A stretch of DNA of 64,000 bases from an uncultured Candidatus Saccharibacteria bacterium (GCA_964612745.1 CAZTCH010000001.1:77387-141386), one strand, 5' to 3'; counted from the stretch's first letter, positions 10,372-63,121 are shown. The notes: a model not told the origin generated them from the sequence alone. Made by a program: numbers and translations.

Positions 10372-10533
10372 GAGGAGAGAAGAAATAGAAGAGTGAGAAG
10401 AAGTAGAAGAATTAGTAAGACGGAGAGTAGTAAAGAGTAAATGGTAAGTAGTAATTAGACAATACGTAATACGAAATTCGCAATTCGCAATTCATAATAC
10501 GCAATACGTAATTCTTAATTCCTAATTCCTCAA
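10372..10533. repeat. Intergenic low-complexity heptamer repeats (purine-rich gaagaag/tagtaag, then acgtaatacg/aattcgc family)
   Basis: Visible tandem 7-nt periodic units. Same motif family as other intergenic regions in this window. Confidence 0.6.
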
Positions 10534-22021: not shown

Positions 22022-22477
22022 ATGAGTCAATTACAGTTAGTTTTGGTGAGTCCAGAGCGAACTATGTATAGTGGTTTTGCCGAGAGCGTGAGTTGCCAAA
22101 CAGAAGACGGCGAGATTACTATTTTACCGCACCATACGCCGTTGTTAACAACACTACGCGCTGGTGAGTTGCGCGTACTGGTAGATGGACAGGTGCAGCT
22201 ATTCCACGTTGGGGGCGGTTTTGCAGAAGTGCAAGCTGGATCTTTGGTTATTATTTTGGCAGACGCCAGTGAACGTGTCTCAGAAATTGATGCAGAACGC
22301 GCGGCAGATGCATTGCAAAGAGCGAAAGAACGGTTAGCGCAAGAATCGTTAACCGATAGGGAATATGCAGCTGTTGCATCGTTAATAGAACGAAATGCAG
22401 CTCGCTTGCAAATTACTCGAAAGCATTCACACAGAAGGCGCAGTCCGGTGACGAGTGAGGGAGTGTTGGAGGAATAG
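22022..22477 (+). CDS. atpC: F0F1 ATP synthase subunit epsilon
   Basis: 151 aa. Final gene of the operon, with a beta-sandwich plus helical C-terminal pattern. Confidence 0.75.
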   Translation: MSQLQLVLVSPERTMYSGFAESVSCQTEDGEITILPHHTPLLTTLRAGELRVLVDGQVQLFHVGGGFAEVQAGSLVIILADASERVSEIDAERAADALQRAKERLAQESLTDREYAAVASLIERNAARLQITRKHSHRRRSPVTSEGVLEE

Positions 22478-22965
22478 AGAATAGAGAATAGAGGGTAGAG
22501 GGTAGAGGGTAAAAAAACTTTTTGCATAGCAAAAAGTTTTTTTAGTACTATTTTCGAATTACGAATTACGAATTACGAATTACGCATTACGAATTACGCA
22601 TTACGAATTACGCATTACGTATTTTGATTTTCTACTTACTACTTTCTACTTACTGATTACTAATTCTTCTATTTCTTCTGTACTTATTACGCATTACGAA
22701 TTACGCATTACGTATTTTGATTTTCTACTTACTACTTTCTACTTACTGATTACTAATTCTTCTATTTCTTCTGTACTTATTACGCATTACGAATTACGCA
22801 TTACGTATTTGTAATTATCTGTTGTGGATATATTATTTTGTATTTGAATTTCTCTTTCAATTCTCTACTCTCTATTCTCTTTTTACTATTTTCTACTTAC
22901 TAATTACTCTTTACTATTCTCTACTCTCTATTCTCTACCCTCTATTTTAAAAAGTTATCAACAAT
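22478..22965. repeat. Composite intergenic repeat region: purine-rich heptamer arm, aattacg/cattacg heptamer tandem, a 91-bp tandem repeat (about 2.3 copies, 22599-22810), and a pyrimidine-rich arm that is the reverse complement of the first arm
   Basis: Direct reading. gagaata/gagggta units at 22478-22510. The 91-bp unit (ttacgcattacgaattacgcattacgtattttgattttctacttactactttctacttactgattactaattcttctatttcttctgtacttat) repeats at about 22599 and 22689. ctctaccctctatt arm at 22900-22960. Confidence 0.7.
22511..22543. terminator. Strong bidirectional rho-independent terminator after the atp operon
   Basis: aaaaactttttgc-ata-gcaaaaagttttt perfect stem, flanked by A and T runs. Confidence 0.6.
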
Positions 22966-35123: not shown

Positions 35124-35297
35124 ATGACTAAAAGAGAGATAGTATTTTGGTTTGTTGTTTTGTTCTTGCTAACGGCGCTGTTCTGCTTTGGGCCGTTAGT
35201 GGTTCAGATGATGATTGAATCTAAGAATACGAGCGCTGCTATGCCTTCGTATACGTTCTCAACACAAAAGGGTTACCCTTGCGCTTTGCATGGGTAA
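35124..35297 (+). CDS. 57-aa small membrane peptide
   Basis: Strong SD (gaggagg) 4-5 nt upstream of the ATG, one TM helix. Stop lies inside the terminator hairpin. Under 60 aa, so absent from the ORF track. Confidence 0.35.
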   Translation: MTKREIVFWFVVLFLLTALFCFGPLVVQMMIESKNTSAAMPSYTFSTQKGYPCALHG

Positions 35298-35306
35298 CCC
35301 TTTTTC
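35268..35306. terminator. Bidirectional terminator hairpin (aaagggttaccc...gggtaaccctttt)
   Basis: 12-bp stem with T-run on the + strand and A-run (T-run on the minus strand). Serves the convergent genes. The same gggttaccc motif recurs at 55664-55700. Confidence 0.6.
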
Positions 35307-35317
35307 TTTTTTATACT

Positions 35318-39092: not shown

Positions 39093-39378
39093 GGTAACTA
39101 AGTTACAAATACGTAATTCGTAATGCGCAATGTGAAATCAGAATTCAGAACTCCGAAACAAACTCCAATCCACAATCCGCCAAACGGCGGAGGCGGACGA
39201 AATCTAAGTTTTAAACATTGGGATTTATTCTTGATGGGCTCTGTGTATAGTTTACAGTTTTGAGTTGAAGTTTTGCGTTTTGACTTTTGAATTTTGAGTT
39301 ACATTTGTATTTATTTGGGCTTTGTCCGCCAGCTGGCGGATTGGAATTTATTTGAATTTGTTGTTTGTTATTTGGTAT
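39093..39378. repeat. Dispersed intergenic element containing a 52-bp conserved motif (39250-39301) flanked by an internal inverted repeat (ccaatccgcc...ggcggattgg)
   Basis: gtttacagttttgagttgaagttttgcgttttgacttttgaattttgagtta is identical to 44719-44770. Heptamer ttttgNN periodicity. Confidence 0.55.
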
Positions 39379-41190
39379 TTACTGTATTTCATACACTGCC
39401 AACACTGCTTGACCGAATTTGTTGCGCATTTCTGTTTGCAACTTGGCGTTGGGGTAAAATGCTTTAAACTTTTTTACATCGAACATGCTGGATTGGGTGA
39501 AGACCACTTGCATACCAGGGAGTAAGCCGTGAGGGTAGGTTGATTTGCCGCGGATAATGTCGGAAGGGGCAAGCCACGCATCTTCTGGGTCCACTTGCAT
39601 GTACGGCATGTTTTTTGGATTATCGACGCAGTTTGGTACACGGAATGCTTCGGTGCGGTCACAGGCACGTGCGCCATCTACTGTGGTGAGGTAGTCAACG
39701 GTTTGCACAGAAAACTTGTCGAGTACTAAATATGTAGTGTTTCTATCTCCATGCTTTTTCAAGTAGTCACTCACGACTGTTAAGTCACTGCGAAAAGCAA
39801 AATAATTTTCTGGGCTATGTGCTGCACCAATAAAATAGTGGGCGTACGTTTGGATAGGTACCCCAATAAAGAAACACACTGCAAGTATTTGCAAAGAAAT
39901 TTGCACTGCTCGTTCCATGCGCGGGCTGCCATGGGGGTGTTTGGTTACTACGTGCCAGACAAACGACCCAACGGTGTGCAAGCCATATGCGGTGATTATG
40001 AACACTGCAGGAATAGTCCCAATAGCTCTGAGGCCGTGGGGGATTCCTTCTGCAGTCGTAATGACCGGTAAAAGGAAAGAAACGAACCAGCCTGCCAAAA
40101 CAAAGCTTGGGTAATGTCGTTTCTGTTGGATAGGGGAGAACATGTAGCGCAGTGCATTCCAAATCACCAGTAACAACCCAAACGCAAAGAATGGGGAAAC
40201 GAGAGGGGAGAGGAAGGCAAGCCCAGAAATATTGTGTCGCCAGTTTAGGTCGCCTTCGGTAAAGTAGCCAAGAAAACTAACTCGCGTTACTTCCAGTACC
40301 GTGCCAATCAAATCACCCTTGTTCAGTTCTGGGTTAAATACGCTTACTTGGCCGCTTCTACCAATAAAGGCATCTGGGTGTGTGTAAAAATAGTGCGCTA
40401 AAGGAGTTATACAAATCGCAAAAGCAATAATTGCCAGAGCGGTCGCTTTCCAGTATGGCGAAAGAGTGGCAACGAGTCCTCGTTCTTTTAAGTGCGCAAG
40501 GAGTGGCCAAATAATGTACAAAGCAAGCAGTGGGGCGAGTACCCGATAGGCAATGTATGTGTAAAACCCAAGTGCAAAGCTTGCACCGAGCGCAATAGCA
40601 TATGCATATTGTGTTTTGCGAGGTTGGTCGCTTTGGTATGTTTTGAGGAGGAAGAGTACAGTGGCGGTAACAAAGAGCGGAATCATGTTTGCACGAAACG
40701 CAGTGCGAGAAAGTACTACATGCCATGTAGAAGTTGCCATGATAAACGTGGCGAGCAGGGCTACTATATTTGCAGATCCAACAGTTTGCTGCACTTGCTC
40801 TACCAATGTTTGTCTGCCAATTTGTACGGTGCGTTCTGCGTGTGTGTCTTCTTCTCTTCCGACTAGTTTTCTAAACAGAGCCTTTGTGACATAAAAACAA
40901 AGTACTGTGGCGCCAATGCCAACGAGGGCGGAGACGACGTGGTGCGCAAATGGGCTTCTGCCGAATAGCTTTACAGAAGCGTACAAGAAGTAAAAGAATA
41001 AAGCTTCACGACCATTGCCTCGTTCGTAAAACGGCTGGAAGAAGCCTTGGTCCATCGAGTTTATGTCTAGTCCATTTGCTGCTTCGTCAGGGAATAAACC
41101 GCCCGGAAGACTGCCAATATGGTACAGTCGAAAGAATAGAGCAAGGGCAAACGTGAGGATTGTTATGGCGAGAAATATCTTTTTATTCAT
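39379..41190 (-). CDS. GT-C fold glycosyltransferase family 39 (ArnT/PMT-like)
   Basis: N-terminal TM then a DE motif (GLFPDEAANGLD). Polytopic, 603 aa. Confidence 0.7.
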   Translation of the reverse strand: MNKKIFLAITILTFALALFFRLYHIGSLPGGLFPDEAANGLDINSMDQGFFQPFYERGNGREALFFYFLYASVKLFGRSPFAHHVVSALVGIGATVLCFYVTKALFRKLVGREEDTHAERTVQIGRQTLVEQVQQTVGSANIVALLATFIMATSTWHVVLSRTAFRANMIPLFVTATVLFLLKTYQSDQPRKTQYAYAIALGASFALGFYTYIAYRVLAPLLALYIIWPLLAHLKERGLVATLSPYWKATALAIIAFAICITPLAHYFYTHPDAFIGRSGQVSVFNPELNKGDLIGTVLEVTRVSFLGYFTEGDLNWRHNISGLAFLSPLVSPFFAFGLLLVIWNALRYMFSPIQQKRHYPSFVLAGWFVSFLLPVITTAEGIPHGLRAIGTIPAVFIITAYGLHTVGSFVWHVVTKHPHGSPRMERAVQISLQILAVCFFIGVPIQTYAHYFIGAAHSPENYFAFRSDLTVVSDYLKKHGDRNTTYLVLDKFSVQTVDYLTTVDGARACDRTEAFRVPNCVDNPKNMPYMQVDPEDAWLAPSDIIRGKSTYPHGLLPGMQVVFTQSSMFDVKKFKAFYPNAKLQTEMRNKFGQAVLAVYEIQ

Positions 41191-43259: not shown

Positions 43260-43576
43260 GGGGTAAGAGAGAATAGAGAGTAGAGGTTAGAGAATAGTAA
43301 GACAGGAATGAGGAGTTAGGAATTAGGTTGTCGTTCGACCCTGAGCTCACGGCCTAAGGGTAGGGAGTAGTAAAATAAATTCCAAATCTCAAGCACCAAA
43401 TAACAATAAATTCCAAAATCCAAAGTAAAAACTAGTAAGTCAAAACTGTAAACTTTCAATACATTTCAGTTTTGAGTTTACAGTTGCAGTTTTGCGTTTT
43501 GACCTTTCAGTTCTCAGTTTTATGCTTTTATTTAGCATTTAGCATTTAGCACTTAGCACTTAGTACTCGTTCAACT
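43260..43576. repeat. Intergenic heptamer-repeat element (purine arm, 52-bp motif variant at 43467-43522, ttagcat/ttagcac tandem)
   Basis: Direct reading. Same architecture as 39093-39378 and 44633-44930. Confidence 0.55.
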
Positions 43577-44632
43577 ATGAACTACTTACTCTATTGCGGT
43601 ATTGCATGTGTGTTGGCACTGGTGATTACGCCTTTGGTGCGTAAGCTGGCTTTTCGCCTTGGGTGCGTCGATAGACCGCAGGGCGGCAGGCATATTCACA
43701 CGAAAGAAACTGCTTTACTGGGCGGTTTAGCTGTTATCTTCTCTATGGTGTTAGCGGGTGGACTCTATGTGCTTTCTGGTAGTTTTGATTTTTCTGTGGT
43801 TCCTACCAAATTTGTGGTTGGCATTGTCACCGGCGTGTTCCTGCTAGTGTTGGGTGGATTTTTTGATGATAAATATACGCTACCCGCTCGCTACTCGTTT
43901 GTGTTTCCAGCGCTTGCTGCGGCGGCGGTAGTAGCTTCGGGGGTAGGTGTGGGGATCACTATATTGACCAACCCATTTGGTGGCGTAGTCCACTTGGGTA
44001 CTCTGTGGTTGGGTGTGCCAATCTCCGCGGTCTTCGTGTGGTTGTGGATTGTAGGTATGACGTACACCACCAAGCTACTGGACGGCTTAGATGGTTTAGC
44101 TGCAGGAGTGTCGCTCATTGGTGGTTTGGTTATGTTTGCTCTGTCACTCACAGATAAAGTTAACCAACCAGTCACGGCAACCCTGGCAATAATTTTTGTG
44201 GGGGCACTTGCTGGCTACTTGTTTTACGCGTTTAATCCTGCCTCTATCTTTTTAGGTGAAATTGGCAGCACATTTCTTGGCTTCTTTCTCGCGGTGCTCG
44301 CGGTGTTAACGGGAGCAAAAATTGCTACTGCGGTACTTGTGATGGGGATTCCGATTTTTGATGTAGCTTGGGCAATTGTCCGCAGACTCTGGCGACGACA
44401 AAATCCATTTGTGGGGGATAGAGAGCATTTGCATTTTCTGCTACTCGATGCAGGGCTTTCACAGCGACAAGCGGTGTTGGTGTTTTACGCACTTGCAGGC
44501 TTGTTTGGCTTTGTAGCAGTGTTCCTACAAAGCATGGGTAAGCTGGTGGCGCTATTTTTACTTTTGGCAGTCATGGTGGGGATTGTAGGGGCTCTGGCGA
44601 GAGTGTATAGGAAGAAGACTAGTAACGAGTAA
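43577..44632 (+). CDS. Glycosyltransferase family 4 polyprenyl-phosphate sugar-1-phosphate transferase (WecA/MraY family)
   Basis: 351 aa, 10-11 TM helices. The N-terminal pattern and conserved cytoplasmic loops match the MraY/WecA superfamily. Confidence 0.7.
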   Translation: MNYLLYCGIACVLALVITPLVRKLAFRLGCVDRPQGGRHIHTKETALLGGLAVIFSMVLAGGLYVLSGSFDFSVVPTKFVVGIVTGVFLLVLGGFFDDKYTLPARYSFVFPALAAAAVVASGVGVGITILTNPFGGVVHLGTLWLGVPISAVFVWLWIVGMTYTTKLLDGLDGLAAGVSLIGGLVMFALSLTDKVNQPVTATLAIIFVGALAGYLFYAFNPASIFLGEIGSTFLGFFLAVLAVLTGAKIATAVLVMGIPIFDVAWAIVRRLWRRQNPFVGDREHLHFLLLDAGLSQRQAVLVFYALAGLFGFVAVFLQSMGKLVALFLLLAVMVGIVGALARVYRKKTSNE

Positions 44633-44930
44633 CTAGTTGCGAGTTGCGAGAAAGATTAAGGAAAAGAGAGTAGAGAGTAGAGAATAGAGAGTAGAACTCA
44701 AAACTGTATTGCATTGAAGTTTACAGTTTTGAGTTGAAGTTTTGCGTTTTGACTTTTGAATTTTGAGTTAAGCTTGTGTTTATTTGTGCTTTTGATATTG
44801 TAATTTATTTGATATTTCGTGCTTGTTATTTGGTGCTTCTTGCAACCTACCCTCTATTTCTTCTAACTCTTCTAACTCTTCTCCTTCTAAAACTCTCCTA
44901 AAACTGGGCATTTTGGCTTACCACCCCTAA
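44633..44930. repeat. Intergenic heptamer-repeat element with the 52-bp motif (44719-44770)
   Basis: Purine arm gagagtagagaatagag, the exact 52-bp motif, a T-rich middle, and a pyrimidine arm ctctatttcttctaactcttc. Confidence 0.55.
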
Positions 44931-45367: not shown

Positions 45368-45529
45368 GCTTCTTAGCTTTCAGCTTCTTAGCTTACAGCT
45401 TCTCAGGCGAGCTCCTAACTCCTATCTTACTATTCTCTAACCTCTACTCTCTACTCTCTCATTCGTCATTACCCCCATCGTTACCTGTATTCCTAAAAGC
45501 TAAGAAGCTAAAAAGCTAGCAGCTAGCTT

Positions 45530-49187: not shown

Positions 49188-50600
49188 TTATTGTGGTTTG
49201 ATAGTTTGGCCGTCTTTGGTGTCTAGTACACTGAAGCCGGCTTTTTCTATTTCTACTCGGAGTCTATCTGATTCCGCAAAGTCTTTGGTCGCTCGAGCGG
49301 TTTCGCGCTGCGAGGCGAGCTCGAGGATTCCTGCGGGGAGTGTTGCGAGTTCTCTTTTGTCTGCAAGTCCTAGTCCGAGTACTTCGTCGAACGAAAGGAG
49401 GAGTGCGCGTTTGCCTGCGGGTGGTAGCGTGTGGTCGCCAACGGCTTCCCAGAGTACAGCGAGTGCTTTGGAAGTATTTAAGTCTGCTTCGAGCGCTTCT
49501 CGGAATGCTGTTTCGTATGCGGTGAGATTACCTCCGTTGGTGTCTGCAGGTGCGTCACCAAGGTTATCTATGTGTGCGTACAACCGTTCGAGAGTTGTTT
49601 TGGCTGCGTGTAGGCTCTCTTCGGTAAAGTTAAACGCTTTGCGGAAATCTGTTTGCAAGCACAAGTATCGAAATGCCAGAGGGTAGAGCGGACCTTTATC
49701 TACGAGATCTTTCAGAGTTATGTAGTTGCCGTCCCGCTTCGCCATTTTTTTGCCATTGACCTGTAGATGTTCGCAGTGTGCCCAGAACTTGGCAAATGGT
49801 TTGCCGAACGGTTGGCTTTGTGCGATTTCGTTGGTGTGGTGGGGGAAGATTAAATCTACACCGCCGGTGTGGATATCTGTGGGCTTGCCGCCAAACGCCA
49901 CTTGGTTAATAACCGAGCATTCAATGTGCCACCCAGGGCGACCTTTGCCCAGTGTGGGGTGGTCCCAAAAAATTTGCCCGTCGTCCTCGGTGTGTGCTTT
50001 CCAGAGCGCAAAGTCGCTTAGGTTTTCTTTTTCGTAGTCGTCTACTTTTACGCGCGCTCCGACTTGCTTGCCTTCTAAAAACTTTGTGCCCACGAGTTCG
50101 CCGTAATCACCAAAATCGGCTTGGTATCTTTCTATACTAAAGAACACGCCGTCTTCTGTCGTGTAGGCGTATCCTTTTTCTATAAGCGCGAGGATAAACT
50201 CCTGAATCTGGGGGATAACATCGGCAACACGAATTATGGAAATTGCACTGTGGTCAATGTGAAGTGTAGACAGTTCCTTTAGGAAAATATCTAGGTAGGT
50301 GTTCGTGTAGGTGCGCAAATCATCCACGCTGCTGGCAGGTCCGAACTGTTTGATGCTGTCCCGAATAGTTTTGTCGTCTACATCGGTAATGTTCATAGCC
50401 CATGTCGTCGGGATGCCGACATACCGCAAACTGCGAACAAGAATATCGGTAAAGAGATAGGAACGAAAGTTGCCAATGTGAGCGTAGTTATACACGGTAG
50501 GACCACAGGAGTACAACCGAAGAGAATCTTTGGTCCCGTGGAGATGGTAATAGTCGTCCAGTGAGTCTGCGTGCTTGGTGAGCGTGTTATATAACTTCAT
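49188..50600 (-). CDS. cysS: Cysteine--tRNA ligase
   Basis: 470 aa. HIGH motif (YAHIGNFR), KMSKS-region equivalent, and conserved CysRS N-terminus. Confidence 0.9.
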   Translation of the reverse strand: MKLYNTLTKHADSLDDYYHLHGTKDSLRLYSCGPTVYNYAHIGNFRSYLFTDILVRSLRYVGIPTTWAMNITDVDDKTIRDSIKQFGPASSVDDLRTYTNTYLDIFLKELSTLHIDHSAISIIRVADVIPQIQEFILALIEKGYAYTTEDGVFFSIERYQADFGDYGELVGTKFLEGKQVGARVKVDDYEKENLSDFALWKAHTEDDGQIFWDHPTLGKGRPGWHIECSVINQVAFGGKPTDIHTGGVDLIFPHHTNEIAQSQPFGKPFAKFWAHCEHLQVNGKKMAKRDGNYITLKDLVDKGPLYPLAFRYLCLQTDFRKAFNFTEESLHAAKTTLERLYAHIDNLGDAPADTNGGNLTAYETAFREALEADLNTSKALAVLWEAVGDHTLPPAGKRALLLSFDEVLGLGLADKRELATLPAGILELASQRETARATKDFAESDRLRVEIEKAGFSVLDTKDGQTIKPQ

Positions 50601-50773
50601 ATTCAGATAGTACCATACCAGCCCACACCCGCCAACTCATTTATTGGATTGTATATGTCTATCAAATTCGAAAACTGTGCATGTTAGTAGTACATTGCAT
50701 TTGAAGAGTGGTTAGTTTTATGTGCCAATGTATTTTTGTCTTGTGTGATAGTCTTTCACCTTATTCGTTCTGT

Positions 50774-50807
50774 GGACCTAATTGTGACGGCCGTCACAAT
50801 TAGGTCC
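50774..50807. promoter_or_regulatory. 34-bp perfect palindrome (GGACCTAATTGTGACGGCCGTCACAATTAGGTCC), copy 1, overlapping the 3-prime end of the regulator gene
   Basis: Exact palindrome. Identical copy at 51377-51410. Confidence 0.6.
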
Positions 50808-51360
50808 TAACACGAAACAGCTTACGAAGGTCTGTGTCGTCTTCAAAGTTTGCGCGAGCAATACGGATATATCGTAACAGTCCTGATTTTTTAAGTAGCG
50901 CTAGCGCTTCTGGGCTAATTGGATGTGGGCTTACATAGATACTTGCTTGCAGGCACAAAAACCCTAAATCGCGTAATGAGTGGCGTAGCTGTGCTCGTAT
51001 GCTGCGCGCTTGTTCGGGTATATCGAACATAATCAGTCGCCAACTACCATCCCAAATTACCGGTTTAGGGTGCATGTGTACAGCAGCGATGAGTGCTTCT
51101 ATTTCTCCTTTGTTTGTGAGACGAAAGATTTTTCGCGCTTCTTTGTATTCAGTTTTAATCCAGCCTTGGTTATGCAGTCTGCGAAGTGTTCGGTCTAGTT
51201 TCTTTTCTCGAAAGTAGCGAGCAACCTCAGGAGCGGCTGCACTGCTCAGTGACTTGCGTCCTAGTGTATCTCCAAAAGCTGATTGGGCAGCTAAAAGGTA
51301 TAAAAGAACGTGAGTGGTCTTGGTTAACTGTTTGCTGTCTCGTACATAAAGTGTCTGCAT
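50800..51360 (-). CDS. PaaX-like winged-helix transcriptional regulator (Cas2-fold C-terminal domain)
   Basis: 186 aa. C-terminal motif WDGSWRLIMFDIPEQARSIRAQLRHSLRDLGFLCLQASIYVSP matches the PaaX_C pattern. N-terminal wHTH. Confidence 0.55.
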   Translation of the reverse strand: MQTLYVRDSKQLTKTTHVLLYLLAAQSAFGDTLGRKSLSSAAAPEVARYFREKKLDRTLRRLHNQGWIKTEYKEARKIFRLTNKGEIEALIAAVHMHPKPVIWDGSWRLIMFDIPEQARSIRAQLRHSLRDLGFLCLQASIYVSPHPISPEALALLKKSGLLRYIRIARANFEDDTDLRKLFRVRT

Positions 51361-51376
51361 ATAGTATTTTTCTTTT

Positions 51377-51410
51377 GGACCTAATTGTGACGGCCGTCAC
51401 AATTAGGTCC
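51377..51410. promoter_or_regulatory. 34-bp perfect palindrome, copy 2, 17 nt upstream of the regulator start codon
   Basis: Identical to 50774-50807. Candidate operator. Confidence 0.6.
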
Positions 51411-51571
51411 TGAGTTAATTGATAGGGCGCTGCAGAGTTTGGTGTGTGGTGAATTTGTTTTGCATCAAGACTGAAGTATCTAACGTATGCTCAGTTTGTA
51501 TCGGCCAATGTTTCTGAGCTTGTGCTGGTATGTAGTTCTTTTAGCTGCTGTTAAACATAAAAGCACTGGCC

Positions 51572-53266
51572 TTAGAGGGCGAGTGCTTTTAAGTGTTGTG
51601 TTTTTAGGTGAGAGAGTTGTTGGTGGGGGTGGGGGTGTTTCAGAATTTTGCTTAAGTGTAGTCCGTTAATGTAGTGAGGTAACAGCACATAGTCCACTTC
51701 GTATTGGTAGAGTGCCCGTGCGTCTGCCTCGTTTTGTGCAGTTACGATGAGCTTAGCGTGGAGGTGCTGGTTTTTGACTGACTCCGCTATTGCCCGGTTA
51801 TCGGATGCACCAGGGAGGGTAGACACAATCATACGCGCGGAACGCAGGTTGGCAAGCTCTTGGATGTACGGGTCAGATGCATCACCACAAATAGCAGGTA
51901 CGCCAAGGCGTGAGTAGTGTTCGGCAACTTCTGGGTTAAAGTCTATTATTACAAATTTCTGTCCATGCCGGAGGAATGACTCTGCTAACTCTTTTCCGGT
52001 ACGGTGCGCGCCAAGGAGGACGATGTGATTTTTGAGTGCTGTAATTTTCAGGTGGCGTTCTGCGCTGCCATCTTTAAAGTCAAACCAATCGAGCATACCA
52101 GCAAGTCGGTCGTAGATGGATTCACCACGCATAATAAAGAATGAGGAAATGGCAATGGTGACAATTGCAACCAGCGTCATGAGACTGCCAATGGTACTGT
52201 CGACGTGGCCAATCTTAATAGCAAGGGCGAGCAAGATTAAGCTAAACTCGGAGACTTGCCCCACAGTAAGCCCAGTCATGAACCCTGTGCGTGGTTTGTA
52301 CCCAAGGGTGGACATGATTACCAGCACGATGAGTGGCTTGCCAATCAGTACAAACAAAGACAGTAGTATTGCTGGAATAATTAAATTGCCCATGCCGGCA
52401 AACTGCAGCTGACTACCGAGTACCACAAAGAAAATCATAATAAAGAAGTCGCGCAAGCTGCGAATGCGCGCAGATACTTCGTGGTGTAAACTGCTGCGGG
52501 AGAGTGCGAGCCCAGCCAAGAATCCGCCAATCTCCAAAGAGAAACCCATGAAAGGGAGTTTTACAAACGACGCAAAACCAATTGCCCATGCAAGGGAGAA
52601 TATTAGGAGGAGTTCGTCTGACTTGCCAATAAATTTGAGCAGCCGAGGGAAGACGAATTTGCTTACCAGAGCGATAATAGCTACAAGTACCGTTGCTTTG
52701 CCTGCAGTAAACAGCAACGTGCCCCATAAAGGGAGTGCGTTTCCTGCCGTGTCGCTCCCACCTGCGCTCGACAGTGTCATGAGCATGACCAGTGCGACCA
52801 AATCTTGCACGAGAAATATTCCCAGTGCGAGTCTACCGTACAGACTTTGCAGTTCACGTTTTTCCGAAAGGAGCTTTACGACAATAATGGTAGAAGAGAA
52901 GCTCAAGCCTACTGCTACATAAATTGCAGCAATAGGCGGCAGTCCAAACCCGAGTGCGAGTACTAAACCCAGTGCGCCCGTTATAGTGACTTGTGCAGCT
53001 CCGGCAATAAGTGCTTTCCTGCCGATTTTTTTCAGTTCAGAAATATCTAACTCAAGTCCTACCATGAACAAAAGTAGTGTAATACCGATTTCCGAAAGAG
53101 AGTGTAAGATTTCGCCTTGGTTTATTTTCCACAATCCGAGTGGGCCAAGTAAAAGACCAGCGAAGATGTAGGCGAGTACCGTTGGCTGCTTAAACAAATT
53201 AACGAGCAACGCACAGCCGCCAGCAACAAGGAGGACAAGTGTGAGTTCTGCAAATAAATTTTCCAT
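51572..53266 (-). CDS. Monovalent cation:proton antiporter-2 (CPA2, KefB/KefC-like) with C-terminal RCK/TrkA-N domain
   Basis: 564 aa, 12-13 TM helices. Rossmann motif VLLGAHRTGKEL...VIIDFNPE. Confidence 0.8.
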   Translation of the reverse strand: MENLFAELTLVLLVAGGCALLVNLFKQPTVLAYIFAGLLLGPLGLWKINQGEILHSLSEIGITLLLFMVGLELDISELKKIGRKALIAGAAQVTITGALGLVLALGFGLPPIAAIYVAVGLSFSSTIIVVKLLSEKRELQSLYGRLALGIFLVQDLVALVMLMTLSSAGGSDTAGNALPLWGTLLFTAGKATVLVAIIALVSKFVFPRLLKFIGKSDELLLIFSLAWAIGFASFVKLPFMGFSLEIGGFLAGLALSRSSLHHEVSARIRSLRDFFIMIFFVVLGSQLQFAGMGNLIIPAILLSLFVLIGKPLIVLVIMSTLGYKPRTGFMTGLTVGQVSEFSLILLALAIKIGHVDSTIGSLMTLVAIVTIAISSFFIMRGESIYDRLAGMLDWFDFKDGSAERHLKITALKNHIVLLGAHRTGKELAESFLRHGQKFVIIDFNPEVAEHYSRLGVPAICGDASDPYIQELANLRSARMIVSTLPGASDNRAIAESVKNQHLHAKLIVTAQNEADARALYQYEVDYVLLPHYINGLHLSKILKHPHPHQQLSHLKTQHLKALAL

Positions 53267-53530
53267 TTTTTATTTCTGTAGTGAACTAGATATGTAAGTA
53301 TTGTATCAAGAAAGTTTACTTGGGGGAATGGAGAAGGCGATAGAGAATAGAGAGTAGAGAGTAGAGAATAGTAAGATAGAAATAAGGAGTTAGGAATTAG
53401 AAATTAGTAACGAGTAACCAGTAGCTAGTAACGAGACAGAAAAAATTGAAAATTAAAAATTAAAAATTATATTCTCTCTAACTCTTCTATTTCTTCTAGC
53501 TTCCTAATACCTAGAAAGCTGAAAAGCTAA
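53267..53530. repeat. Intergenic heptamer-repeat region (purine arm gagaatagagagtag, then aaattaaaaatt, then pyrimidine arm)
   Basis: Direct reading. Confidence 0.5.
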
Positions 53531-53545
53531 CAAGCTAGTAAAATT

Positions 53546-53574
53546 TGCTCAAAAGCCCTCCAAACTGGTATAAT
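53546..53574 (+). promoter_or_regulatory. Promoter with extended -10 (TTGCTC, 17 nt, TGGTATAAT) 6 nt upstream of the ATG, implying a leaderless transcript
   Basis: tggtataat at 53566-53574. ATG of MNTPDAIFFIG at 53581. Confidence 0.45.
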
Positions 53575-53580
53575 TTACAC

Positions 53581-54156
53581 ATGAATACACCTGATGCAAT
53601 ATTTTTTATAGGACGGTCTGGTGCTGGAAAAGGAACTCAAGCACGTGAACTTTCCGAGCGACTTGGGTTTTTTTATTGGGAGATGGGCGCAATTTTGCGT
53701 GCCGAAATTTCTCGTGGTACGCCTATTGGCAAGGAAATCCAAGCACTTGTGAACCAAGGGTTGTTTTTGGGTGACCACCACATGTTCAAAGTTATTGCGA
53801 GTCATATCGACGAAATCCCCGAAGGCAAAGGCATTATTTTCGACGGACTACCACGGCGCATGAGCCAAGCACCATATGTTATCGGCTTACTCCATGGTTT
53901 GGGTCGCAAAGATTTGGCAACGTTGTTTTTAGATGTTCCCCGAGAAGACTCAGTTGAACGTTTGCTCAAGCGAGCAACTGTCGAACACCGACCAGACGAC
54001 ACAGAAGAAGTAATCAACCGTAGACTCGACCAGTTCGAACAAGAAACGTTACCTGTGCTGGACTTCTTGCAAGAGATGACACGTTTTTATCGGATAGATG
54101 GCAGGCCAGCAATTCCAGAAGTGACTACCGCCATTAACACACTGCTCGAAATCTAA
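53581..54156 (+). CDS. Adenylate kinase family nucleoside monophosphate kinase (short LID type)
   Basis: P-loop GRSGAGKGTQA, NMP-binding and FDGLPRRMSQA motifs. Start chosen at the leaderless ATG rather than 53545. Confidence 0.7.
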   Translation: MNTPDAIFFIGRSGAGKGTQARELSERLGFFYWEMGAILRAEISRGTPIGKEIQALVNQGLFLGDHHMFKVIASHIDEIPEGKGIIFDGLPRRMSQAPYVIGLLHGLGRKDLATLFLDVPREDSVERLLKRATVEHRPDDTEEVINRRLDQFEQETLPVLDFLQEMTRFYRIDGRPAIPEVTTAINTLLEI

Positions 54157-54806
54157 TGCCAACAGCGCGTACCAAAGTAGCGAAGAAGACACCAGCGAAG
54201 GCGGAGCAGCCGCTCAATATTTTTGTGCTCGGTGACTTAGGTGCGGGTAAAGGGACGCAGTCGGTGCTACTGCAAAATCTGTTTCCGTTGTACGAAATAG
54301 ACATGGGGATAGAGCAAGAGCTGCAGCGACGTAAAGATCCAAAGCTCGATGCGCTGCTTAAGCGAACTGTGGATCAAGGTAAGCTGAATAACACTACCGT
54401 GTACCGACGCTTAGTGAAAAACGCAGTGTTGCGGGCACCGAAGAGTAAAGGTATTTTGTTTGCTGGGCATCCGAAAATGCCAGACGAAGTGCGCTATGTA
54501 AATCGCTTTTTGCGCACTCTGGGTAGGACTCGGGCGATCGCTGTGTACATTACGATTCCATGGAAAGAAACAGTGCGCAGAAATTCGCAACGCAAAGGTT
54601 ACTTCGGAAACAAGAAGCGGCCAGACGATTCGCTTGCTGCAATCGCAGTTCGCAGGAAAAATGCCCAAGCTAGTTTGCGCCAGTCGCGCAGTGTGTACAA
54701 AGAGTTGTACCCGTACTTGCAGATTAGTGGCATGGGGACTGTGCGCGGTGTGCACGGCAGAGTCATGCAGGCAATACAAAAGCTGACTAAAAAGCTGGAC
54801 TCGTAA
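54156..54806 (+). CDS. Second, divergent adenylate kinase-like NMP kinase paralog
   Basis: P-loop LGDLGAGKGTQS. Divergent NMP-binding region (FAGHPKMPDEV). Start overlaps the stop of the previous gene. Confidence 0.55.
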   Translation: MPTARTKVAKKTPAKAEQPLNIFVLGDLGAGKGTQSVLLQNLFPLYEIDMGIEQELQRRKDPKLDALLKRTVDQGKLNNTTVYRRLVKNAVLRAPKSKGILFAGHPKMPDEVRYVNRFLRTLGRTRAIAVYITIPWKETVRRNSQRKGYFGNKKRPDDSLAAIAVRRKNAQASLRQSRSVYKELYPYLQISGMGTVRGVHGRVMQAIQKLTKKLDS

Positions 54807-55582: not shown

Positions 55583-55663
55583 GCACAAAATTCGAAAATA
55601 GATAATTTAAAACTCAAAAGTCAAAACTTCAGGTCAAAACTTTAAACTCTTGAAAAGGGTTAC

Positions 55664-55700
55664 CCTTGTGCAGCACAAAGGTAACCCTTTTGCGTTCTCT
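55664..55700 (+). terminator. Rho-independent terminator after map (gggttaccc hairpin family)
   Basis: aaaagggttacccttgtgcagcacaaaggtaaccctttt. Confidence 0.55.
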
Positions 55701-55901
55701 ACGTTCCATCTGTCAGTGCATGTTAGATGGTGCCCTCAAGTCCTAACTGAAAGTTTCTAACTTTTGAGTTGCAGTTTTGCGTTTTGACTTTTGATTTTTG
55801 GGTTAAAGGTTTAAGTCTTTATCTATCTTTTCAAGCCCATATTTCTTTGTTTTTCCGCTATAATTGGACATATTTTCCATATTGCCGTGTTCCTGAATGT
55901 G

Positions 55902-56982: not shown

Positions 56983-57150
56983 AAGCTTCTTAGCTTGCTA
57001 GAAGCAGAAGAAATAGAAGAAATAGAAGAGTTAGAAAAAGGCGCTTAGAGATTGGTTTTTCTACTCTCCCCGCACTTTGCGGGGTCTCGATACTGCATCG
57101 GGGCTAATCTCTACTCTCTACTCTCTATTCTCTCGTTATTTACTCCTAAT
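56983..57150. repeat. Intergenic heptamer repeats (purine arm agaagaaatagaag, pyrimidine arm tctactctctattctc)
   Basis: Direct reading. Confidence 0.5.
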
Positions 57151-57152
57151 TT

Positions 57153-59339: not shown

Positions 59340-60803
59340 ATGGCAAACGAAGTTGTATTACGTTTCTCCGAAGTCACTTTTGAATACTCACACCAGCGTC
59401 ACCTGCTAGAAGAGGCGTCTTTTTCTGTGCGTTCAGGAAGCCGTATGGCACTGATGGGTCAGAATGGGGCAGGGAAGTCCACGTTGTTCAAAATGATTAC
59501 CGGTGAACTGCAACCAAACGAAGGACAGGTTATTTTAACCCCGCGCGACACCACTGTAGCGATTGCAAGGCAAGTCATGCCTGCAGAGCACATGGATTTG
59601 TCTGTACGCGATTACTTTGCGACTGCGTTTACCGAGAAGAAATACAACCTAGACAAGCTTATTGTCAACGTGTTTGCTGTGGTGAACTTGGACGTTCCTC
59701 TGGAAAAAACTATCCGAGAGTTTTCCGGTGGGCAACAGGCACGATTGCTTTTGGCGTACGCTATTATCCAAGAGCCGGACATTCTGCTGCTCGACGAGCC
59801 TACCAACAACCTAGACCAAGCAGGTATAGAACACCTGACAGGGTTTTTGATGATGTACGAAAAGACCTGTATTGTTATTTCCCACGATGCGGATTTCTTG
59901 AACGCATTTACCGATGGTGTGTTGTACTTGGATTCATTTACTAAAAAAGTAGAACAGTACACAGGGAACTACTACGACGTGGTAGAAGAAATTGGCAAAC
60001 GGATTGAGCGAGAAAACATGCAGAATGCTCGAGCAGAAGGGGAAGTTAAACGCCTCAAAGCACAAGCAGAACAATTCGCCCACAAAGGGGGAAAACTGCG
60101 TGCAGTAGCAAAGCGTATGCGTGAGTCTGCCGAAGAAGCAGAAGACACCATGGTAGATGTGCGCAAAGAAGATAAGACAATTCGCGAGTTTACTATTCCT
60201 ACACAAGAGTATCCGAACTTCTTTAATGGACAAGTAGTGCAAGTTACTTCTGTCTTTGCAGTAAAGCACGGCAAAGTGCAAGAAAAAGAAAAAGAGATTA
60301 CTGTCCGCCGTGGGAGCCATATCCTTATTTCTGGACCAAACGGTATTGGCAAGAGCACATTTTTGGACGCACTCGCACATGGTAAAGCAGCTGGCGCAAA
60401 GATTGCCGATGGCATTGTGACTGGCTACTACAAACAAGATTTCTCCATGCTCAATTTTGCGGAGACTGGCTTGGACTCGCTCCTTGGGGTTATGCAGGAA
60501 AAGGATGAGCAGTTTGCTCGCTCTGTGGCAGCAGGATTTTTGCTTGATGGAAAAGTGTTGGCAACAGATATCGGTGCTATGTCCGAAGGGCAAAAAGGTT
60601 TGCTTGCGTTCTGCCGACTGGTGTTAATGAAACCAGGGTTGCTAATATTGGACGAGCCGACCAACCATATTAACTTCCGCCACTTACCGGTAATCGCCAA
60701 AGCGCTGGATGAATTCGAAGGCGCGCTGATAATGGTGTCCCATATTCCTGATTTCGTGTCGCAGATTCGCATAGACGAAGTAGTAGATTTGAGTACCATA
60801 TAA
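59340..60803 (+). CDS. ABC-F family ATPase (tandem ABC domains, no TMD; EttA/Uup/YbiT-like)
   Basis: Two Walker A motifs (GQNGAGKST; GPNGIGKST), two signature motifs (SGGQQ; SEGQK), and a charged inter-domain linker of about 80 aa. Confidence 0.8.
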   Translation: MANEVVLRFSEVTFEYSHQRHLLEEASFSVRSGSRMALMGQNGAGKSTLFKMITGELQPNEGQVILTPRDTTVAIARQVMPAEHMDLSVRDYFATAFTEKKYNLDKLIVNVFAVVNLDVPLEKTIREFSGGQQARLLLAYAIIQEPDILLLDEPTNNLDQAGIEHLTGFLMMYEKTCIVISHDADFLNAFTDGVLYLDSFTKKVEQYTGNYYDVVEEIGKRIERENMQNARAEGEVKRLKAQAEQFAHKGGKLRAVAKRMRESAEEAEDTMVDVRKEDKTIREFTIPTQEYPNFFNGQVVQVTSVFAVKHGKVQEKEKEITVRRGSHILISGPNGIGKSTFLDALAHGKAAGAKIADGIVTGYYKQDFSMLNFAETGLDSLLGVMQEKDEQFARSVAAGFLLDGKVLATDIGAMSEGQKGLLAFCRLVLMKPGLLILDEPTNHINFRHLPVIAKALDEFEGALIMVSHIPDFVSQIRIDEVVDLSTI

Positions 60804-60964
60804 GAGAGAGTAGAGAATAGAGAATAGGGTATACAAAAAGACCGCTTAAGCGGTCTTTTTGTTTTACTACAACCTAGCTCCTAATTCCTAGCTCCTTTTT
60901 TCTTGTGTATACTGAACGTACTTGTAGGATCAAAAATAAGGCACACTCAAAGAAAGGAGGAGTT

Positions 60965-62498: not shown

Positions 62499-63032
62499 AT
62501 GAAAATAATTGACCTCACACAAACTATTGAAAGCGGGATGCAGGTGTACACAGGAGATCCGAAAGTCGAAATAGAGACAGTACAGTCGGGGGGCGCGGAA
62601 GGGTGGCGATTGCAGAAACTAACTCTTGGCTCGCACACTGGTTCGCATGTAGATGCGCCGTACCATATGGCGGAAGCTGGTGCGACACTCGACACGTTAC
62701 CACTCGAACGCTTTTTTGGTGATGCCGTTATTGCAAGTACGGACACAGAATTTCCCAAACATGTGGGACTCGTGTTTCGAGACGAGCAGTTGGGCGAAGA
62801 CTTGTTGCCACGATTTATTTTGGCTGGTACGCCTTTTGTGGTAGTAGGGGACAAAGCGCATATGGAGCTAGCGCTCGAACGGCAACTGCTGAGCCGAGAT
62901 ATTTTAACGTTTACTGATTTGATTAATTTGTCCGAACTGCCTTCCGAAAAGCACTTTGCGTTTTACGGTATTCCACTAAAGATAAAGAATAGTGATGGCT
63001 CACCTATACGCGCGTTTGCGATTGTGGACTAA
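62499..63032 (+). CDS. Cyclase family protein (kynurenine formamidase-like)
   Basis: 177 aa. Metal-binding motif HTGSHVDAPYH. Confidence 0.65.
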   Translation: MKIIDLTQTIESGMQVYTGDPKVEIETVQSGGAEGWRLQKLTLGSHTGSHVDAPYHMAEAGATLDTLPLERFFGDAVIASTDTEFPKHVGLVFRDEQLGEDLLPRFILAGTPFVVVGDKAHMELALERQLLSRDILTFTDLINLSELPSEKHFAFYGIPLKIKNSDGSPIRAFAIVD

Positions 63033-63121
63033 GTAGGCAGAAGTAGCGAGTAACTAGTAGCTAGTAACGAGAAAGAAAAGAGTCGTTACACCATAAAGAA
63101 TAATAAATAAGATACAAATCC

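Follow-up and report, generated by a model that had tools for sequence, protein, structure and literature searches.

A hypervariable, palindrome-bracketed gene for a PaaX-like regulator in Saccharibacteria and its relatives across the candidate phyla radiation

A gene for a 186-aa PaaX-like protein, here called X, lies between two identical, perfect 34-bp palindromes in the genome of an uncultured Candidatus Saccharibacteria bacterium, and thousands of relatives throughout the candidate phyla radiation (CPR) have the same layout. The finding comes from a stretch of 64,000 nucleotides (hereafter, the window), in which X stands between kef and cysS, the fixed place at which the module is inherited in this Saccharibacteria lineage. 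The most unexpected result is that the cassette is hypervariable between genomes that are otherwise near-identical, which is unusual for a housekeeping regulator. Judged from sequence, what is new here is most likely a PaaX-type autoregulator in a bracketed, hypervariable and CPR-wide form, with a non-negligible chance that the module is something more unusual. CPR bacteria, or Patescibacteria, have tiny genomes with few regulators, and almost nothing is known of their gene control. The features of the locus, in window coordinates, are as follows.

49188-50600, minus strand: cysS (Pfam)
50601-50642, minus strand: conserved cysS promoter region, predicted from sequence; conserved downstream edge of the cassette
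50643-51551, no strand: hypervariable cassette (intergenic DNA, U, X, D, intergenic DNA), with little or no similarity to the otherwise about 90-99% identical locus L002
50774-50807, no strand: downstream dyad D, identical 34-bp palindrome over the stop and final codons of X
50800-51360, minus strand: regulator gene X, 186 aa, winged helix plus Cas2-like/PaaX_M ferredoxin-fold domain (aa ~103-182)
51361-51376, minus strand: spacer AAAAGAAAAATACTAT between U and the ATG, 16 nt, read from sequence
51377-51410, no strand: upstream dyad U, perfect 34-bp palindrome, 16 nt 5' of the X start codon
51553-51590, minus strand: canonical intrinsic terminator of kef, stem plus UUUUAUGUUU; conserved upstream edge of the cassette
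51572-53266, minus strand: kef, Kef-type Na/H exchanger with a TrkA_N domain (Pfam)
53545-54156, plus strand: adk (Pfam)

The palindrome, GGACCTAATTGTGACGGCCGTCACAATTAGGTCC, occurs at 50774-50807 and 51377-51410 with 100% identity, as the first-pass annotation had reported, and the similarity between the two copies reaches weakly beyond it, over 47 nt at 89% (repeat family D15). The same annotation had one copy 17 nt upstream of the start codon and the other overlapping the last codons. The upstream placement stands, with the distance corrected to 16 nt (51361-51376, the ATG being at 51360), and the overlap is borne out: D shares 8 nt with the coding sequence, namely the TAA stop, the Thr186 codon and two bases of the Arg185 codon. 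Several orthologous coding sequences run into their palindrome, and the proteins then end in, for example, ..DGR.. or ..SGRLN. The suggested search for further copies found, within the 64-kb window, no third 34-mer even at three mismatches (nor did any of 100 shuffles yield a match); the 18-nt core and single half-sites matched only the same two sites, and no ACGGCCGT lies in the window besides the two dyads.

The palindromes are thus not spread over many unrelated intergenic sites, with two copies in 64 kb and, in related loci, 2.63 zero-loop dyads per kb beside X against 0.097 per kb in the rest of these loci, a 27-fold enrichment. It is accordingly very improbable that they are generic repeats, either REP-like or bidirectional terminators, with no relation to the gene between them. 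Some dyads of the family do have A-run/T-run arms like those of bidirectional terminators (for example, AAAAACCGCGGCCGCGGTTTTT in L005), and a few unrelated zero-loop palindromes sit in convergent gaps, but the window dyad has no T run, and the two copies of a locus agree with each other but not with those of other loci. Given the low copy number, the enrichment and the absence of any terminator in a dedicated scan, the generic reading is largely refuted.

What does not survive comparison is the resemblance of the TGTGAC...GTCACA core to classical HTH operators. This argument fails because the TGTGAC part is exactly what varies between orthologues, where AGTAGA, AACGGA or AATGTAAG takes its place; a CRP-like TGTGA operator was rejected on this ground. 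The conserved part of the dyad is instead its CGGCCG centre. A replication origin or terminus site was likewise discarded, as GC skew is uniformly positive over the window, with no switch at 50-51 kb.

The 186-aa ORF between the palindromes was described as a PaaX-like wHTH regulator, and a strong PaaX_M match with weak winged-helix matches agrees with that description. Specifically, Pfam PaaX_M (PF20803, 'PaaX central Cas2-like domain') scores 81.9 bits over aa 103-179 (cut-off 24, E 3.5e-23), and the Pfam PadR, PaaX and Cas2 matches are weak and below threshold, with PF07848 (PaaX winged helix) at 16.9 bits (cut-off 24.8) and Cas2 PF09827 at 18.3 (cut-off 23.8). In a phmmer search of PDB sequences, E. 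coli PaaX (8A39) aligns with aa 27-162 (E 4e-5); the AF2 model of the N-terminus predicts three helices plus a wing, and Foldseek with the model against the PDB ranks PaaX first, followed by Cas2 and VapD, with weak matches (E about 5e-3). The NCBIfam PaaX model TIGR02277 reaches 53.2 (cut-off 264.55) and is covered only at positions 34-162 of 279; the C-terminal effector domain, which binds phenylacetyl-CoA, is absent from X, which ends at 186 aa. The profile, phmmer and Foldseek results together make X, at the level of sequence and predicted fold, most probably the first two domains of a PaaX-type repressor without its C-terminal effector domain. The cas2 model TIGR01573 narrowly passes its cut-off (24.9 versus 24.5) over aa 108-144 only, and the PADLOC Cas2 models match at E about 3e-6 with their N-terminal half alone covered. 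Across 121 family members, D113, P115, R122, R126, Q138 and S140, which correspond to Cas2 hallmark positions, are invariant, and variability is greatest at aa 21-60, inside the winged helix. In a single pairwise phmmer alignment, PaaX has no Asp opposite D113, its SEG standing against FDI of X.

The tie between palindromes and regulator is upheld by the family at large, in which the bracket is a conserved trait. The 80 loci compared, at 27-47% identity, were taken from a metagenome scan in which X had at least 600 relatives. In the orthologues L002, L003, L084 and L088, X keeps its kef-X-cysS context and has a 34-38-bp dyad on each flank, the position of U being homologous and the sequences differing: two identical copies of GGTCGTAAAGTAGACGGCCGTCTACTTTACGACC in L002, GGACCTAAAACGGACGGCCGTCCCTTTTAGGTCC upstream and GGACCTAAAAAGGGCGGCCGTCCTTTTTAGGTCC downstream in L003, TGTTCGTAATGTAAGCGGCCGCTTAAATTACGAACA in L084 and GGACCTAAAAGGGACGGCCGTCCCTTTTAGGTCC in L088. 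A matched dyad pair surrounds the X homologue in 43 of the 72 metagenomic loci that have both flanks, with copies agreeing within a locus and disagreeing between loci; a segment of at least 12 nt is common to the upstream and downstream zones in 43 of 69 loci, compared with 2.5% in cross-locus controls. The most frequent centres are CGGCCG (45), CGATCG (13) and CGGTCG (9), and CTATAG, CGACCG and CCATGG also occur. The median U centre lies 46 nt 5' of the start codon and the median D centre 29 nt past the stop, with a median centre-to-centre spacing of 627 bp. Dyad similarity correlates only weakly and uninformatively with similarity of the N- or C-terminal part of the protein (rho 0.08-0.22).

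The family comprises 3392 representatives at 50% identity (E<=1e-10) and at least 1953 clusters at 90% identity. Its members, where named, are proteins of Doudnabacteria or Patescibacteria that are routinely mislabelled 'CRISPR-associated Cas2' or 'PaaX'; the database name 'CRISPR-associated endonuclease Cas2' is an over-annotation. The kef-X-cysS position is stable down to 50% protein identity, and ORF clustering of all 80 loci yielded no conserved neighbour gene, by which an operon partner for X was rejected. The genes downstream of X include cysS, argS (5 loci), rsmA (3 loci) and ftsZ, and 17 of 63 are convergent; around X in the window the neighbours are kef, cysS and adk, with no paa catabolic genes. 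A CRISPR link was dismissed (no array in the window, no cas1), as was a phage origin (no relative in IMG/VR viral contigs, no PHROG match). With no conserved partner, no CRISPR array and no viral relatives, the module therefore stands alone. The Southlakia Tn-seq tables (PMC10633639), consulted on whether X is essential, yielded no identifiable X orthologue; only a genuine type II Cas2 is annotated there, and the cysS neighbours differ. Within the literature on PaaX, Cas2-wHTH fusions, CPR palindromes and REP/RAYT, no published description of a PaaX/Cas2-like palindrome module was found.

Whether the dyads work as duplex DNA or as RNA hairpins can be approached from their centres. When the dyad centre was located from the outer arms alone, 80 of 82 elements proved even-centred, and both central base pairs were complementary in 59 of the 82 (72%), as against the 1/16 expected for a free tetraloop. 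Sense-strand stem mismatches are G.T in 29 cases and A.C in 25, with no wobble preference. No U tract follows either U or D (the sequence after the D stem is ACAGAACGAAUAAGG), whereas kef in the same locus has its canonical terminator, and a scan of 50300-51900 found no intrinsic terminator for the dyads; with a GC stem lacking a U tract, this identity was rejected. The self-complementary centre, the lack of mismatch bias, the missing U tract and the -10-like hexamer that tends to follow U (see below) favour, as first proposed, a dimeric-protein operator over an RNA terminator, and point to the dyads as two-fold symmetric duplex-DNA sites for a dimer, not an RNA hairpin or terminator.

A function at the RNA level, with hairpins at the 5' and 3' transcript ends serving as stabilisers, as a terminator without a U tract or as binding sites for X on its own mRNA, is in this light quite improbable. 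Its merits are that the predicted RNA hairpins of the two copies are very stable (-27.7 and -33.7 kcal/mol, z about -6 to -7), that D certainly lies within or at the end of the X transcript, and that Cas2 and VapD relatives include RNases (PMC3351183). An RNA loop would not be constrained at its central four bases, however, and a stem paired as RNA would be expected to prefer G.U over A.C mismatches; the locus also has no Rfam match. Furthermore, a -10-like hexamer follows U at +6 to +36 of its centre in 25 of 43 loci (13 of 43 for D and 13-17 of 43 in mirror controls, so that the enrichment is only about two-fold), and in the many loci that have this hexamer U would be untranscribed. L086 illustrates the arrangement around U with TTGACA-palindrome-TATATT, and several loci of the family look leaderless for X.

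In the window, the spacer AAAAGAAAAATACTAT holds a weak -10-like AAAAAT at 51366-51371, 5 nt from the X ATG, which is a candidate leaderless or short-leader promoter of X; a promoter scan of the window gave nothing convincing on either flank of U. The cysS gene has an extended -10, TGGTACTAT, at 50607-50615, 6 nt before its ATG at 50600, and it appears leaderless. Its promoter region is nearly invariant between genomes (window, L002, L003 and L084), and several X genes of the family have the same -10-to-ATG spacing as cysS.

In the best-supported model, X works as a homodimer and reads the long dyad as double-stranded DNA. The pairing of a conserved centre with an invariant Cas2-like domain, and of variable arms with a variable winged helix, suggests which domain reads which part: the Cas2-like dimer would lie over the CGGCCG centre, and the two fast-evolving winged helices would read the dyad arms. 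As U appears to lie on or directly before the X core promoter, binding of X there would repress transcription of X. D, at the stop codon, would be a second operator, which might either cooperate with U through a DNA loop of ~600 bp or, when bound, form a roadblock that separates X from the next gene; looping between U and D is plausible. Protein and sites would then constitute a self-contained specificity module that divergent alleles replace as a whole. That X is a dimeric PaaX-type repressor which binds both dyads as duplex and negatively regulates itself is, in our estimate, somewhat more probable than all else combined. Four observations sit uneasily with an autoregulator: perfect symmetry over 34-48 bp exceeds what an operator normally needs, the invariant D113, at the catalytic Asp position of Cas2, would be superfluous in a mere dimerisation domain, there are solo copies at a distance from promoters (including one in-frame within rsmA), and dyad similarity does not track the similarity of either X domain.

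The first-pass annotation had also supposed that the palindromes might delimit a mobile cassette and had called for a comparison of the locus in related strains. The kef-X-cysS locus was compared accordingly, and close relatives carry divergent versions of the module with different palindromes. The amino-acid identities (%) are as follows.

Window and L002: Kef 99, X 59, CysS 96
L084 and L089: Kef 99, X 58, CysS 93
L084 and L092: Kef not given, X 55, CysS 92
L003 and L088: Kef 92, X 80, CysS 86

At the DNA level (alignment of the window with L002, plus blastn), the two genomes are about 90% identical over kef and cysS and only 68% over X. The alignment is near-perfect up to the kef terminator, then breaks down entirely and is near-perfect again from about 40 nt before the cysS ATG; a second lineage has the same pattern. 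With conserved flanks, divergent interior and alignment breaks between them, the data indicate that an entire unit of ~0.75-0.95 kb is exchanged between close genomes, three of which have three different dyad specificities (AAGCGGCCGCTT, GGACGGCCGTCC and AACCGGCCGGTT). The module thus does swap as a cassette, but the palindromes are not its ends: the replaced segment reaches about 140 nt past them on the upstream side and about 130 nt on the downstream side, and its edges are the kef terminator on one side and the cysS promoter on the other. Homologous recombination within the conserved flanks, plausibly by way of natural transformation, is compatible with this picture, which also speaks for balancing or diversifying selection acting on the specificity of protein and site. 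Another possibility is that recombination is stimulated by the palindromes themselves. Such hypervariability hints at functions in conflict, identity or incompatibility.

The palindromes also evolve in a manner that a pure dimer-binding model does not predict. Differences between U and D of the same locus fall at mirrored positions 79 times, against 32.6 expected (none of 2000 permutations was as high), and 42 of these changes are fully compensated; one-sided differences are present as well (139). Each copy therefore tends to retain its own self-complementarity, which suggests that selection or repair acts on pairing within a strand. Template-switch 'quasipalindrome correction' could yield compensated changes without selection, and a hairpin or cruciform function could equally account for the compensated arm changes.

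Solo palindromes related to the local module lie within a few kb of it in L009, L041, L060, L032 and L076. In L076, a 38-bp palindrome (957-995) is in-frame in rsmA/ksgA, within an insertion of ~22 aa that rsmA of L019 and L032 lacks, and is reminiscent of the Rickettsia palindromic elements; in L032, a palindrome of the local module type (2780-2824) is inside the rsmA/ksgA reading frame. A scan of the genome collection found the 26-nt core of the window palindrome once more, in another Saccharibacteria MAG (CAZKVS010000007.1, L001:4844-4887), as a solo perfect palindrome of 44 bp, TACTTATAGCTAATTGTGACGGCCGTCACAATTAGCTATAAGTA, whose outer arms differ from those of the window yet are complementary. 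It is intergenic, between flippase-like and cytidylyltransferase-like genes, with no X homologue in the 8 kb of that locus. Outside the module, related loci have about 0.1 zero-loop dyads per kb, only some of them module-related, and the 17-18 kb of L084 and of L086 contain no further dyad copies. In L003, a ACGGCCGT-centred palindrome, CATTCCTGACGGCCGTCAGGAATG, lies exactly at the contig end (6041-6064), 2.5 kb away from the module, a hint that assemblies break at such palindromes and that MAGs may therefore show too few copies.

Because solo palindromes exist elsewhere, a selfish, REP/RAYT-like role of the Cas2-like domain remains the chief rival candidate. X would here belong to a mobile palindrome system, akin to REP/RAYT or to a homing element, its Cas2-like fold nicking or processing extruded hairpins or cruciforms; the palindromes would be copied to new sites, with X between two of them as RAYT genes lie between REPs, and fast diversification would reflect conflict or frequency-dependent selection. 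Such a system would explain why X is flanked by cognate palindromes that differ from genome to genome, and it would draw on the solo copies, including the in-frame one of L076 and that of L001, on the arm changes compensated within each copy, on the invariance of D113, R122, R126, Q138 and S140 and on the cassette's hypervariability between near-identical genomes. We nevertheless hold it to be unlikely. Copy number is very low for a selfish element (two in 64 kb, none further around the L084 and L086 modules), the kef-X-cysS position is stable, the replaced segment ends outside the palindromes, and no target-site duplications are seen. The only Pfam and NCBIfam matches of X are to PaaX_M, Cas2 and winged-helix models, and it has no HUH/Y1 or other transposase domain. 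Finally, a GC-rich centre disfavours cruciform extrusion, and a hairpin loop would not need the central tetranucleotide to be kept symmetric.

A more specific and still less probable version holds that X is a Cas2-fold enzyme that nicks or processes hairpins of its own palindromes at CGGCCG, the whole being an unrecognised, CPR-wide specificity cassette. If true, this would account for the spread of palindromes, even in-frame into genes, and for the rapid turnover of alleles. In function the module would then parallel REP/RAYT or homing systems, with a Cas2-like domain at its core, and it might be a free-living relative of the ancestor that supplied CRISPR adaptation with Cas2.

The window has further features. 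Strand-asymmetric low-complexity arrays with a period of 7 nt (sometimes 9 or 14 nt) occupy many of its intergenic regions, for instance as AGAGAAT/AGAGAGT or TACGAAT/TACGCAT runs, or as a 93-nt unit repeated 2.3 times at 22593-22810, and related arrays recur in both orientations. Their positions are as follows.

10378-10526, 22468-22961, 39103-39386, 43260-43542, 44610-44904, 45412-45463
53334-53517, 55753-55827, 56997-57151, 60790-60838, 63031-63079

A hairpin at 60833-60862, ACAAAAAGACCGCTTAAGCGGTCTTTTTGT, resembles an ordinary bidirectional terminator, as do two related AAAAGGGTTACCCTT...GGGTAACCCTTTT elements at 35261-35309 and 55653-55696; all are unrelated in sequence to GGACCTAATTGTGACGGCCGTCACAATTAGGTCC. 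Two adjacent genes of the adenylate-kinase family (53545-54156 and 54156-54806) stand in tandem, and the pair is also present in the syntenic L084 (ADK and ADK, then Peptidase_M24).

With a probable DNA target adjoining each gene, the family offers thousands of natural protein-site pairs, a data set suited to learning how a winged-helix/Cas2-like dimer reads DNA and how its specificity evolves, as well as a possible source of orthogonal repressor-operator pairs.

Among known systems, the closest in architecture is PaaX, the phenylacetyl-CoA-responsive repressor of E. coli and Pseudomonas (PDB 8A39, 3L09), in which, as predicted for X, a winged helix precedes a Cas2-like domain. E. coli PaaX, a dimer, represses its own promoter; its binding site, TGATTC-N27-GAATCA, is a dyad of ~39 bp (review PMC9493321). 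A dyad of ~35-40 bp is therefore a natural footprint for this architecture. Both proteins have long dyads of comparable span, but PaaX has half-sites far apart, whereas the X site is perfect, uninterrupted and present on both sides of the gene. X furthermore differs from PaaX in lacking the C-terminal effector domain and a nearby paa operon, in the hypervariability of its module and in keeping the Cas2-type FDIP and QxS motifs (the SEG of PaaX opposite FDI coming from one pairwise alignment). With Cas2 and VapD, X shares a beta1 strand that ends in Asp, an Arg-rich alpha1 and QxS in beta2; unlike Cas2, it is fused to a DNA-binding domain and is accompanied by no cas1, array or conserved neighbour. 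REP/RAYT systems likewise consist of a single-copy gene bracketed by a variant-specific palindrome, with further copies in some genomes, although RAYTs (TnpA_REP) are homologues of HUH/Y1 (IS200/IS605 TnpA-like) transposases, which X is not. REPs are imperfect, have a GTAG/CGTC head and number tens to hundreds per genome (PMC3733652, PMC3337134). The X dyads, in contrast, are perfect and CGGCCG-centred, with two copies in 64 kb. The 'immunity' modules of lambdoid phages offer an analogy: each repressor is swapped together with its cognate operators, as a cassette, between otherwise homologous genomes, and many specificity types result. The X module differs from these in being chromosomal and non-viral (without an IMG/VR relative), in having one gene and in having putative operators that flank this gene, rather than lying between divergent promoters; what the two have in common is that protein and sites are inherited and exchanged together.
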